64,000 nucleotides of DNA from a virus (IMGVR_UViG_3300011217_000001:128001-192000), one strand, 5' to 3'. Shown: positions 12,425 through 19,436, counted from the first letter of the stretch. Made by a program: numbers and translations. Notes: generated by a model not told the origin, from the letters alone.

Positions 12425-12949
12425 TTATTTGACTACCTTCAGGAAAGGTCGGCCTTGGGTCTTGCTGGGGGTTTCCTTGGTGGGAAGCTTGCCAGCGTTG
12501 AGGTTTTCAATGTACTCGTTCAGAGCCGGGTTGTTACCCAGCGACATGCCCCTGCCGGACTCTTCCAGCATGAACGCCGACAGAATCGAATCGACGTCGA
12601 CGATGGCATCGAAGTGTTCGCCCTTGGAACGCGCAGAGAACAACAGCAGACTCACCGGGTCGTGCGGCTGCGGGTCGTCACCTTCACGGTAGAAGGTCAG
12701 ACCACGCGTAGCCTGCTCGCCGAGGTTCAGGACGATGATGGAGATCTCCGCACCCGGAGTACCGTCATCGTTCTCCAGTCGCTGTTTCTGGACCGGCAAC
12801 GTACTGGGCAGCTGATTGCCTTCCCAGTTGGCGACGATGCAGATATGGGGCGATCCACCCATGGCGAAGATCCAGTTGTACAGACCTTCGATGACGAAGC
12901 CGGCAGTGCCGATGTGCGGGTTGATCTGGTTATCACTACGCTTATTCAC
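12425..12949 (-). CDS. sspB: SspB-like ClpXP adaptor protein
   Basis: GLYNWI....SPHI, IVLNLGEQA, FSAR, ILSAFMLEESGRG parallel SspB; C-terminal GRPFLKVVK matches ClpX-binding tail GRPALRVVK; GTG start with GGAG RBS. Confidence 0.82.
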   Translation of the reverse strand: MNKRSDNQINPHIGTAGFVIEGLYNWIFAMGGSPHICIVANWEGNQLPSTLPVQKQRLENDDGTPGAEISIIVLNLGEQATRGLTFYREGDDPQPHDPVSLLLFSARSKGEHFDAIVDVDSILSAFMLEESGRGMSLGNNPALNEYIENLNAGKLPTKETPSKTQGRPFLKVVK

Positions 12950-12998
12950 GTCTTTCTCCGTGGTTACAATAGATTGGTTAGATGCGTTGGGGATTACT

Positions 12999-13034
12999 CT
13001 GTTCGATAGTGTAGGTTTGAAATACACTGGAATA
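12999..13034 (-). promoter_or_regulatory. Putative phage early promoter
   Basis: TATTCCAGTGTATTTCAAACCTACACTATC, matches recurring TTTCA-N3-CTAYAY motif. Confidence 0.55.
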
Positions 13035-13035
13035 C

Positions 13036-13065
13036 GGCATAGGGGAAGAGCCGAAGCTCCTCCCC
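13036..13065 (-). terminator. Hairpin + TATGCC element
   Basis: TTCG-loop stem then TATGCC. Confidence 0.6.
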
Positions 13066-13071
13066 CAATAC

Positions 13072-13191
13072 TCAGCCACATTCACCCTTGAGGGTAAGTG
13101 TCAGCATGTCAGCGAATCTGCAGTTCGCCTCGTGCTGCGCCTCTAACAGCGCCTCGGACACATCTTCTTTTTCTTTGGTTTCTTCGTCCAT
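13072..13191 (-). CDS. Small hypothetical protein (39 aa, MDEETKEKEDV...)
   Basis: Read manually; fills the gap between upstream gene and terminator. Confidence 0.45.
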   Translation of the reverse strand: MDEETKEKEDVSEALLEAQHEANCRFADMLTLTLKGECG

Positions 13192-13201
13192 CACTCAAGC
13201 C

Positions 13202-13471
13202 TCATCCGAAAAGGATCAAGCCATTACGAGTCTGGATTGCACCTTGCAGCCAGTCACCTTTTTCGGTCGCATGCGGACCGACATCGAAGCCATGCTTGCG
13301 AAGCATTGCGATGGCATCGCGGTTGGGTTGACCCTCCCCGTCGATAAGTACTTCCTCGGCGAGATAGATGATCTCCGGCTGGAGCATCTTCAGTGCCGTG
13401 ATCGGCGACTGCTGATACGTACGCAGCTGTTCAACGAGATCACCCAAGGGGTCTTTGTGGTTCGTCCCCAT
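13202..13471 (-). CDS. Hypothetical protein
   Basis: 89 aa ORF. Confidence 0.65.
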   Translation of the reverse strand: MGTNHKDPLGDLVEQLRTYQQSPITALKMLQPEIIYLAEEVLIDGEGQPNRDAIAMLRKHGFDVGPHATEKGDWLQGAIQTRNGLILFG

Positions 13472-13540
13472 TGTCAGAGTTCCTATCGGGTCTGTCGATT
13501 ATGGCAGGTACTACCCTGCCATAGGATTGGGGACGTTTAG

Positions 13541-13577
13541 GGCATAGCGGAGGGGGCATGAGCCCCCTCCGTATGTC
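13541..13577. terminator. Hairpin flanked by TATG on both strands
   Basis: ggcata-g-CGGAGGGGGC-atga-GCCCCCTCCG-tatgtc. Confidence 0.65.
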
Positions 13578-16797: not shown

Positions 16798-16801
16798 GTA
16801 A

Positions 16802-16832
16802 GGGGAGAGCTGGCGGGCTCTCCCCTTATGCC
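16802..16832 (+). terminator. Hairpin + TTATGCC between convergent genes
   Basis: GGGGAGAGC-TGGCGG-GCTCTCCCC-TTATGCC. Confidence 0.7.
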
Positions 16833-16833
16833 G

Positions 16834-17637
16834 TTAGCTCAGCTCGGGCGTGGTGCCAGCTTGTTCCTGCGCCTTCTCGGCGATGTATTTCTCGTGCCAG
16901 TCCGAGAGCTCGACGATGAAGACACCTTCTTCACCCAGGAAGTAGCCGGCTTCGCGCAGGAGACGCTTCTGGACAGCCATCTCCTGGGTAGCCATGTACA
17001 GCTTCAGGGTGATCGGCCATTCGGAAACCGGCACGGAGTTGTTGGGCTCGTTGCCGCAGCGCAGCTTCAGTTCCTGCTTGATGATCTGCTCGATCATGTC
17101 ATCGAAGCGCGGTTCCTTGAAGTTGACCGACTTCAACCACTTGCCCTTCAGGTAGACCTTACCGTCGGTGCCGGTGACGGTTTCGGTGACCTTGGTGACG
17201 TAGACCGTTTCACCCTGGTATTCCTTCTTGATGAAGAAGGTTTCCACGCCCAGGCGGGTGTACTTGGTGCGGGTGTCCAGCAGGTCATCCATGTTCTTGT
17301 CGAACTTGGAGAACTGGCTTTCGTTCACCCGACGCAGCACTTCGGCAGCATCGAAGCCGTAGCGGCCGGCCAGGCCGATGATGGTGAACAGGCCATCGCC
17401 CACGCCGTCGATGATCTCGTGCAGGTCGTTGGCAGCGATGCCGTCGCGCAGCTCGTCCACTTCCAGATCGATGATATCCATCTGGTGCTGCGCGGAGCGG
17501 TGGCCCTGCTTGCGCACATTGCCGGCCAGCTCGTTGATGGCGTAGACCTGCTCGAACATCTTGGAGGCGATGGAGAGGTGCATCGCATCGGAGGCGATCT
17601 TGGGGGACATGGGCTTGGTGTTGTTGTCGGCGTTCAT
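16834..17637 (-). CDS. MazG-like / PRA-PH all-alpha NTP pyrophosphohydrolase
   Basis: EVDEL..E..DG.GD acidic motif and V.ESQFSKF signature. Confidence 0.8.
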   Translation of the reverse strand: MNADNNTKPMSPKIASDAMHLSIASKMFEQVYAINELAGNVRKQGHRSAQHQMDIIDLEVDELRDGIAANDLHEIIDGVGDGLFTIIGLAGRYGFDAAEVLRRVNESQFSKFDKNMDDLLDTRTKYTRLGVETFFIKKEYQGETVYVTKVTETVTGTDGKVYLKGKWLKSVNFKEPRFDDMIEQIIKQELKLRCGNEPNNSVPVSEWPITLKLYMATQEMAVQKRLLREAGYFLGEEGVFIVELSDWHEKYIAEKAQEQAGTTPELS

Positions 17638-17645
17638 GGGCTTGC

Positions 17646-18932
17646 TCAGTTGGCCTTGGTGATGTGACGCAGGAGGGAACGCTCGAACAGCTTGCTCAGA
17701 GCGCTGTCTTCGGCGACGGGAGTGCACTGGCCCCAGACCAGTACGGAGGTTTCCTTGCCGAGTGCGGACATGGCAACCACCTCGGTGAACGGCAAGTCCA
17801 TGAACGGATGGTCGTCATCCAAGGAAACTTCGCCGTGACGCAGGGCTTCGTCGATCAAATCAGCAGCGCGTTCCGGGGTCAGAACGAATGCGCTGTTGTC
17901 GCCGTATGCGCCGGCGTCGGTGATGGTCCAGCGGTTGGTTTCCGGATCACGCTTGATCGTGCGAGCGATCTGGCAGCTGCAGTAGGCCGACTTACGCTCC
18001 CACTTCAGGTCGTAGCCTTCGATCTGGATATGGAAGCCCTTGACGGTGGCCAGTGCGTGGACCAGATATTCCACCGCATCCGTGCGAGTGTTGATCGGAG
18101 TACCACCACGAGCCAGCTTCGGGCCGAGACTGGTCTTGCCGGTAGCACCTTCGAACAGGTACTTCTCGATCTGCCCCTGCTCACCCATGGTGCAGTTCTG
18201 GCGCATCGTGGAGTAGAGGATGTTGAAGATCTGCTGGTTCCAGGTCAGGCGATCGAAGAACTCGGGGTTCTCTGCAGCCTTCAGGACCATCGCGCAGCGC
18301 TTCTCTTCCACCAGGCGATAGAAGCCGTACTTACCGGTCTGGCGCATGCGTTCCTGCTGCTCGCCGGTCAGGTTGTTCACATCGACCACTTCACCGTCAA
18401 TGGTGAAGGTGCTGGGGCCGTGTTCCATGTCGATCTTCGGGAAGACGTACTTGGTCGCACTGGTGAGGATCTCGAAGCCGCTTTCCAGGACACCGCGCGG
18501 ATCAGGCGGAGTGACGGCGCTGACCTTGAAGCCTCGTTCGATCGGACCAACATCCGCCTTGACGTTGACGTCGAAGCTGGAAGGGTCAGGGAAAATGCCC
18601 AGGCTGTTGAAGCGGCTGCTACCGCGCATGCCTTCGCTGTCACGGTAGACGTCGACGGCCAGAGTCTGGAACGGCTTGCCGGCTTCGCCGTACAGCGAAT
18701 GCGCCTTCACCTTGACGGTGTGGTTCTTCAGGTAGTCGGAGATGATCGCCAGTGCATCATGGCGGACGTAGAAGTTGCCGTGGACGAGGATCGGATCGGT
18801 GTCGATCTTCTCGCCGGGCTCGTGGCTGATCAGCTTCAGTACTTCTTCCAGCACGCTCGGTGGTTCACCGTCCAGCAAGAACAACAGATGCTGGATCAGG
18901 TTGGTTTTCTGTTCGTGGGACAATTCGGACAT
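17646..18932 (-). CDS. Hypothetical protein
   Basis: Long ORF; start MSELSH. Confidence 0.75.
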   Translation of the reverse strand: MSELSHEQKTNLIQHLLFLLDGEPPSVLEEVLKLISHEPGEKIDTDPILVHGNFYVRHDALAIISDYLKNHTVKVKAHSLYGEAGKPFQTLAVDVYRDSEGMRGSSRFNSLGIFPDPSSFDVNVKADVGPIERGFKVSAVTPPDPRGVLESGFEILTSATKYVFPKIDMEHGPSTFTIDGEVVDVNNLTGEQQERMRQTGKYGFYRLVEEKRCAMVLKAAENPEFFDRLTWNQQIFNILYSTMRQNCTMGEQGQIEKYLFEGATGKTSLGPKLARGGTPINTRTDAVEYLVHALATVKGFHIQIEGYDLKWERKSAYCSCQIARTIKRDPETNRWTITDAGAYGDNSAFVLTPERAADLIDEALRHGEVSLDDDHPFMDLPFTEVVAMSALGKETSVLVWGQCTPVAEDSALSKLFERSLLRHITKAN

Positions 18933-18997
18933 TGGACTTGCTCTTCCAAGTGAATAAGGTTTGTACATACCACTGACCCCGGATTTTAAATTTGACA

Positions 18998-19026
18998 GCA
19001 TAGAGCAGGAGGCCGAAGCCCCCTGC
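18998..19026 (-). terminator. Hairpin + TATGC element
   Basis: TTCG-loop stem after gene 19035..19436. Confidence 0.55.
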
Positions 19027-19034
19027 CTAGCTGA

Positions 19035-19436
19035 TTACTTGACGATGAACAGCGCCGGTCGTTTGCCACGCTCGGGCTTCTGTCGAGGACGATCCAGATA
19101 CATCGGATCATCGTAGAGGTCTTCTTCGTCGATCAGGTCGTTGTCAAACCGGATCATACCGTCATCGCCGCGATAGCCCACACGGTAGGCTACGCTGTTG
19201 TGGAAGTTGACCACGCCTACGATAACCACAGCAACAGCTGCATCGGGCAGATCTTCAGGCTTGGGGTTCACGTTGCCCATGAAGATACCCATCCATGCGT
19301 CGTCACCGATGCTGTACTTGGCTTCGCGGGTGTTGGCGAAGATCTCGGCAGGACTGAAGGTGAAAATCTCCTGCTTGCTGATCAGCACCTGAGCTTCGGC
19401 CTCTACGGCCTCAAACTCGTTTTCAAAGTCACTCAT
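19035..19436 (-). CDS. Hypothetical protein with SH3-like core, acidic linker and SspB-like ClpX-binding tail
   Basis: KYSIGD..VVIVGV..YRV; DNDLIDEEDLYDD; C-terminus GKRPALFIVK. Confidence 0.65.
   Translation of the reverse strand: MSDFENEFEAVEAEAQVLISKQEIFTFSPAEIFANTREAKYSIGDDAWMGIFMGNVNPKPEDLPDAAVAVVIVGVVNFHNSVAYRVGYRGDDGMIRFDNDLIDEEDLYDDPMYLDRPRQKPERGKRPALFIVK

Follow-up and report, generated by a model that had tools for sequence, protein, structure and literature searches.

We suggest that a jumbo phage of Xanthomonas encodes two different proteins which imitate the tether of the ClpXP adaptor SspB. Both genes lie on the minus strand of a 64,000-nucleotide stretch of viral DNA (the window; bases 128001–192000 of the 230,357-bp record IMGVR_UViG_3300011217_000001, which is 99% complete). 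One product is a diverged homologue of SspB and the other is a protein of 133 amino acids with a predicted barrel-like core, here called XB133; both end in a tail of the type of the XB peptide of SspB (Table 1, positions counted from the first base of the window). As two proteins with no detectable similarity outside the tail carry the docking peptide of SspB, the phage probably redirects or blocks protein degradation in its host.

The source virus is a Xoo-sp14-like Xanthomonas jumbo phage and a chimallivirus. Between window positions 12000 and 20000 its DNA is 84% identical to Xanthomonas phage Xoo-sp14, a 232-kb phage infecting X. oryzae, and Xoo-sp14 as well as phage LucasX have been placed in the chimalliviruses, the nucleus-forming jumbo phages (preprint 10.1101/2024.03.21.585822).

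The SspB homologue and the barrel protein

Judged by sequence comparison, the first gene codes for a diverged homologue of SspB. The PRK11798 models of NCBIfam match its product with E values from 9e-10 to 1e-6 over profile positions 8–144 of 144, the last position included, at scores under every curated NCBIfam cut-off. A BLASTP comparison with SspB extracted from a Xanthomonas genome gives 26% identity over 160 residues (E = 2e-12); the alignment runs from end to end, the tails are aligned, and the binding domain of the phage protein has two insertions. The phage protein shares with bacterial SspB (PF04386; E. coli and H. influenzae, structures 1OX9, 1OU9, and 8ET3) the homologous binding domain, the linker, and the tail, but it is set apart by the low identity, the insertions, and the lack of a match in Pfam. 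A match was likewise not found in PHROGs, phmmer with the window protein returned nothing from the PDB, and the family profile reached the SspB entries of the PDB with an E value of 0.99 only. The orthologue of Xoo-sp14 (Xoo-sp14_69) is annotated as ClpXP specificity-enhancing factor. Four orthologues, from Xoo-sp14, an IMG/VR contig, and two metagenomic proteins, are 57–67% identical; all of them end with [RK]-P-x-L-x-V-V-K, and the linker before this tail varies in sequence and length.

The homology and the tail GRPFLKVVK had already been noticed in an earlier note on this DNA, and both hold, but the boundary given there, 218 amino acids, does not. The corresponding open reading frame (ORF; 12425–13081, minus strand) was rejected as over-extended because its first 44 codons cross the hairpin and the CTATGCCGT element. 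The gene starts with GTG at 12949, preceded by GGAGA, and its 174 codons agree with the length annotated in Xoo-sp14. By itself the SspB homologue is ordinary, as it is already annotated in related phages. Homologues have been described in Pseudomonas phage pf16 (gp18; PMC5587285) and in Erwinia phage RAY (gp039, a cytoplasmic protein; 10.1101/2023.02.24.529968), and the window gene belongs to the class formed by these proteins, PHROG 8945, and Xoo-sp14_69. SspB-like genes are also present in the phages RTH11, LucasX, Ralstonia FLC1-1B, and Erwinia SNUABM_54.

The second protein, XB133, has no match in Pfam, PHROG, or NCBIfam, and the family to which it belongs, together with its conserved tail, appears to be undescribed. 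Word-index and exhaustive searches found two close orthologues with tails identical to that of XB133. The metagenomic protein P0011 (211 amino acids) is 31% identical to XB133 in an alignment that extends to a tail of the same form, and tblastn and a profile search added LUCX_191 of LucasX (235 amino acids), P0016, P0017, and P0018. In Xanthomonas phage RTH11 a further member, with 152 amino acids, was found next to the SspB-like gene. In total, the family consists of nine sequences from about five lineages (the Xoo-sp14 group, LucasX, RTH11, metagenomic P0011/P0016, P0017, and P0018), the lowest identity to XB133 being 21%. The long forms have an additional helical N-domain of ∼85 residues; the Xoo-sp14 group and RTH11 lack it, independently of one another.

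The C-terminal motif [RK]-P-x-L-x-[IV]-V-[KR] is common to all nine members, although P0018 has it six residues before the end. Seven alignment columns are invariant among the nine: four belong to the core (G44, W48, Y84, and G87) and three to the tail (P127, L129, and V132). Three of these seven fall into the 8 tail columns of a total of 114 (hypergeometric p = 0.007 for six non-redundant sequences), and the two x positions of the motif are the most variable ones, being hypervariable. The earlier note had described the tail GKRPALFIVK on a second, non-homologous protein and had counted its conservation in orthologues among the tests of the proposal; gene and tail are as claimed, and the tail is present in homologues with 21–31% identity.

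A fold model of XB133 was calculated with AlphaFold from an alignment of eight rows and reached a mean predicted local distance difference test (pLDDT) score of 70.5, compared to only 47 for the model from the single sequence. The model has an N-terminal helix and a core of four strands (residues 40–110, pLDDT 77–88), and the score drops below 50 for residues 117–133, so that the tail is predicted to be flexible behind a folded domain as in SspB. The fold matches are chromo-barrel domains (MSL3, MRG15) and Tudor domains with Z scores of 5.2–6.4, that is, generic small barrels. The best of them, the MSL3 chromodomain (Z 6.4, root mean square deviation 3.7, 76 residues aligned), and MRG15 (Z 5.9–6.0) are within the range of common arrangements. 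The fold matches do not include SspB, an absence which does not exclude a relationship. Searches of the ESM Atlas gave chance-level scores only (0.82), and BFVD contained nothing beyond the orthologues of the barrel protein itself.

In its architecture, a folded putative binder followed by a flexible segment and a nearly identical tail, XB133 resembles SspB, but the globular parts have no detectable sequence similarity; they may have a very remote common origin. In hhalign, the alignment with the profile of the phage SspB proteins is confined to the C-terminal 53 columns and is driven by the tail (probability 60%); with host SspB it shrinks to 21 tail columns. As only the C-terminal end aligns in these profile–profile comparisons, the proposal of two different domains with one docking peptide stands within the reach of the tools.

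The tail motif and its counterparts in the host

The C-terminus of XB133 is of the XB peptide type: it has 8 of 11 residues in common with the XB peptide of E. coli, the sequence of which is given in PMC3983244 and PMC8808172, and 7 of 10 with the C-terminus of Xanthomonas SspB, G-K-R-P-H-L-R-V-V-K. The tail of the phage SspB homologue likewise matches that of the host protein. At the codon level the 3′ end of the barrel gene and host sspB have no nucleotide similarity, and there is thus no sign of a recent capture.

Such tails are rare. Among the 1690 six-frame ORFs of at least 40 amino acids in the whole 230-kb genome, two end with [LIVM]x[LIVM][LIVM]K, and these two are the SspB homologue and XB133. 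In LucasX the strict motif occurs in 1 of 2321 ORFs, the member of the barrel family, and ∼0.003 strict tails per proteome are expected from the composition. These counts rest on six-frame ORF scans; a greedy gene caller chose GC-rich shadow ORFs over both tail genes and served for background rates only. When two complete Xanthomonas genomes were scanned for DNA coding for P-x-L-x-[VI]-V-K with a stop codon directly behind it, each had a single match, which lies in sspB. A looser pattern, applied to five jumbo-phage genomes, returned SspB-like proteins, members of the barrel family, and noise only; two extra matches in Ralstonia phage FLC1-1B were rejected, as they are in the wrong frame and in a shadow ORF.

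The Xanthomonas genomes were reached via a genus-typical repeat that was used purely as a locator. Xanthomonas ClpX carries the zinc-binding N-domain zf-C4_ClpX (PF06689). Neither PF06689 nor ClpP was found in the three phage genomes searched, so that any docking must take place on the ClpX of the host.

There is also a second type of tail. Among 50 SspB loci surveyed throughout the phylum two tail classes are seen, the gamma/beta-type …L-R-[VIL]-V-K and the alphaproteobacterial type …V-S-L-D-x-F-R-K-K. The homology of LUCX_196 of LucasX to SspB is clear, with E values of 6e-13 against the E. coli protein and 5e-11 in Pfam, but instead of an LxVVK tail it ends with …M-A-D-F-R-A-R-R-K-P-S-S. 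The SspB homologue of RTH11 ends alike, the shared motif being D-F-R-A-x-R-K-P-x-S. Both ends resemble the alphaproteobacterial class, whereas the SspB of their hosts uses the other class. The alphaproteobacterial tail is reportedly able to bind ClpX as well. The two proteins of the window use the gamma/beta-type tail only. As the SspB-like tail differs in LucasX and RTH11 and the barrel protein keeps the XB tail, the two can be regarded as modules that separate from each other within a block of loose synteny.

The long barrel members P0017, P0018, P0015, and P0011 contain between the N-domain and an acidic linker an internal motif of the form S-[LM]-x-[DE]-F-[KR]-x-R-[RK], for example S-M-A-D-F-K-S-R-R. 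The first residues of XB133 are what remains of this motif (M-S-D-F, column of F4), the basic residues being lost. In LucasX a pattern for the second tail type, formulated post hoc, matches LUCX_196 and the barrel member only. To judge from this likeness to the alphaproteobacterial tail, the internal motif may be a second docking peptide, which we regard as a lead and not as a result.

Genomic context

The minus strand holds nearly all genes of the region, and the unit boundaries on both strands are repeatedly marked by a GC-rich hairpin with (C)TATGCCGT or TATG behind it, which is also present in LucasX after LUCX_196. The hairpin with its element is probably the standard terminator of the phage, perhaps joined to a promoter or start element. 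A simple scan for terminators misses most of the copies because they have no T-run. Judged by these elements, the SspB-like gene heads a unit with two genes of no assigned function and the dCTP deaminase gene, which runs from 12949 down to 10585 and has its end element at 10547–10555. XB133 is the last gene of a unit extending from 20216 down to 19035, in which it follows an i-spanin-like gene and an overlapping gene for an o-spanin-like lipoprotein; its ATG overlaps the stop codon of the lipoprotein gene. This pair has the architecture of spanins, and its matches to the PHROG annotation 'Rz-like spanin' are weak (E = 0.006 and 0.0036). The SspB-like and the barrel gene are in different transcription units, in agreement with the earlier note that had described the genes as not co-operonic.

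Table 1. Positions of the genes, tails, and boundary elements discussed in the text (window coordinates unless a contig is named).
Feature	Position	Strand	Basis or remark
Diverged SspB homologue, 174 amino acids: substrate-binding domain with two insertions, variable linker, XB tail	12425–12949	–	NCBIfam, BLASTP, Xoo-sp14 annotation
XB-type tail of the SspB homologue, last 9 codons	12428–12454	–	kept in four orthologues
XB133, 133 amino acids: acidic N-terminal helix, Tudor/chromo-barrel-like core (residues 40–110), short Pro/Arg linker, disordered tail	19035–19436	–	predicted model
XB-type tail of the barrel protein, last 10 codons	19038–19067	–	likeness to E. coli and Xanthomonas SspB tails
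64-amino-acid protein, ATG start, ends LVA, then bidirectional hairpin	16603–16797	+	conserved small gene
i-spanin-like gene, transmembrane segment and coiled coil	19677–20216	–	weak PHROG match
o-spanin-like lipoprotein gene, lipobox	19436–19804	–	weak PHROG match
GC hairpin and CTATGCCGT element directly upstream of the SspB-like gene	13034–13066	–	starts separate unit
GC hairpin (19005–19027) and TATG element closing the spanin-like/barrel unit	18995–19027	–	read from sequence
Hairpin before the spanin-like/barrel unit	20253–20274		unit opens after it
Hairpin-plus-element copies	10547–10555, 13034–13066, 13539–13547, 16803–16834, 18995–19027, 20253–20274	both	unit boundaries
MazG-like nucleotide pyrophosphohydrolase	16834–17727	–	PHROG 671, E = 7e-18
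dCTP deaminase	10585–11424	–	flanks region, as does the MazG-like gene
Unevenly conserved genes	13587–15335 and 17646–19001	–	comparison with IMG/VR contig L003
LUCX_196, SspB homologue of LucasX	L004:6917–7483		2.2 kb from barrel-family member
SspB homologue of RTH11	L133:8962–9501		

Four lineages (the window, LucasX, contig L082, and RTH11) have an i-spanin-like gene immediately upstream of the gene of the barrel family, and in the four lineages with visible context an SspB-like gene is found 2–6 kb from the latter. This synteny is weak evidence for a functional linkage because the phages are related. In RTH11 a MazG-like gene and a dCTP deaminase gene are likewise near the SspB-like gene, and since the window has the same pair, the adaptor-like genes can be said to lie in a neighbourhood of nucleotide metabolism.

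Conservation towards the IMG/VR contig L003 is very uneven across the block: a 582-amino-acid protein with a long acidic middle part rich in Glu and Ala is 96% identical, its neighbour of 451 amino acids 38%, and the remaining genes range from 41% to 94%. A search of the whole genome record with the Pfam family Proteasome (PF00227) gave no match at E ≤0.01.

Docking, delivery, and the alternatives

Based on the tails, we suggest that both phage proteins would mimic the XB tethering peptide of host SspB and would dock on host ClpX at its zinc-binding N-domain. The SspB-like protein would be a captured and heavily remodelled adaptor, and the Tudor/chromo-barrel-like domain of the second protein would hold a partner that is thereby tethered to ClpXP and degraded, which would make XB133 a phage-made adaptor. 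Physical docking of both tails in the manner of SspB is likely in our view; for the reading as a whole, including the remodelled adaptor and delivery by the barrel, we see about even chances. Provided that the tails dock, delivery of cargo is slightly favoured over blockade, because the barrel with its invariant aromatic residues is kept by every member. As the barrel gene is always beside spanin-like genes, one guess is that the partner is linked to lysis or expressed late. It is doubtful whether one can go further and see in the barrel family a true phage-made ClpXP adaptor linked to the spanin-like genes, the long forms of which would carry an internal alpha-type in addition to the C-terminal gamma-type docking peptide.

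Several observations weigh against this proposal. In P0018 the motif is followed by N-E-A-Q-P-A, and thus a free C-terminus directly behind the motif is not universal. The match of the barrel fold is generic, with Z at most 6.4, and points to no cargo. Between barrel and tail there are only ∼15 residues compared to ∼40–50 in SspB, which may hinder the hand-off of a cargo to the pore. The SspB-like proteins of LucasX and RTH11 are without the XB tail, so that the two proteins need not act together. All family members are from related Xanthomonas-type jumbo phages, and their synteny and tails are not fully independent observations.

On the contrary, the docked proteins might deliver nothing and act as decoys or anti-adaptors that displace host SspB and the substrates depending on the N-domain, whereby phage proteins would be protected or useful host proteins stabilized. 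Such a blockade is a possibility which we hold with some reserve. It draws on the same conservation and rarity of the tail, and the short linker of the barrel protein would suit it. The free XB peptide is said to have been used as a competitor of N-domain-dependent degradation, and the inhibition of host proteases by phages is known: PinA of T4 and gp4.5 of T7 act on Lon, RexB of lambda on ClpP-dependent turnover, and SPO1 gp53 on ClpCP and CIII of lambda are further modulators of host AAA+ proteases. These are small phage proteins that retarget or inhibit a host protease, but they concern other proteases or other mechanisms, and to our knowledge none of them works via a copied XB tail of SspB. 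However, a decoy has no need of a conserved ligand-type barrel with the invariant aromatic residues W48 and Y84. That the barrel is kept in every member and the N-terminal domain was lost twice suggests that the barrel, and not mere bulk, is under selection. A role of the tail apart from ClpX is improbable. It might be a motif for β-strand addition to a phage partner, a signal for sorting into or exclusion from the phage nucleus, or a degron by which the protein times its own turnover; this would be in line with a nucleus-forming phage that has a protein-sorting system of its own, with the co-transcription of the barrel gene with spanin-like genes, and with the fact that the link from the phage tails to ClpX is one of sequence likeness. 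Yet the motif ends the gamma/beta-type cellular SspB proteins across the phylum survey, is confined to SspB in the host, and sits at the homologous position in the phage's own SspB homologue.

The earlier note had gone beyond delivery by two proteins and had included a small protein ending with LVA as a third part of the kit, which could be an ssrA-like substrate or a decoy. The small protein does exist and does end with LVA, but its membership in the kit is very unlikely. The ending is kept in Xoo-sp14 and in contig L003, and the tag encoded by the transfer-messenger RNA (tmRNA) of X. translucens ends with Y-A-L-A-A (at the X. phaseoli locus a tmRNA gene was not detected by ARAGORN). However, the three phages are at least 90% identical in this protein and its conserved ending therefore adds no weight. 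One L[AV]A ending is observed where 0.27–0.49 are expected per proteome; upstream of LVA the part of the tag that binds SspB, a segment like A-N-D-D-N-Y, was not found; and LucasX has no homologue. An L-A-A-type end above chance and an adaptor-binding part, the two marks of an ssrA-like degron, are therefore both missing. Moreover, the gene stands alone between two minus-strand units, on the opposite strand and with its own hairpin. It is a real small gene with an ending at the level of chance, and we have dropped it from the system. That the SspB-like and the barrel gene form one kit is unproven. The data fit a blocking of ClpX as well as delivery to it, and the defence or division proteins named as targets in the earlier note are pure conjecture.

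The known ClpXP adaptors are few and all bacterial, and we know of no phage protein shown to use the docking site of SspB; our literature search found no report of a phage protein other than SspB with an XB tail. Should docking of the barrel family on ClpX prove true, the family would represent a natural 'degrader', composed of a binder and a copied tethering peptide. Phages would then take over or shut off a main protease of the host by peptide mimicry, and if in particular the adaptor reading is true, jumbo phages would make their degraders by transferring docking peptides from one domain to another, unrelated one. As the tail is otherwise unique to SspB, it provides a simple sequence rule for finding more such proteins. 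In nucleus-forming phages cytoplasmic proteins are exposed to the host proteases, and the finding thus bears on how the cytoplasmic phase of the infection is protected.

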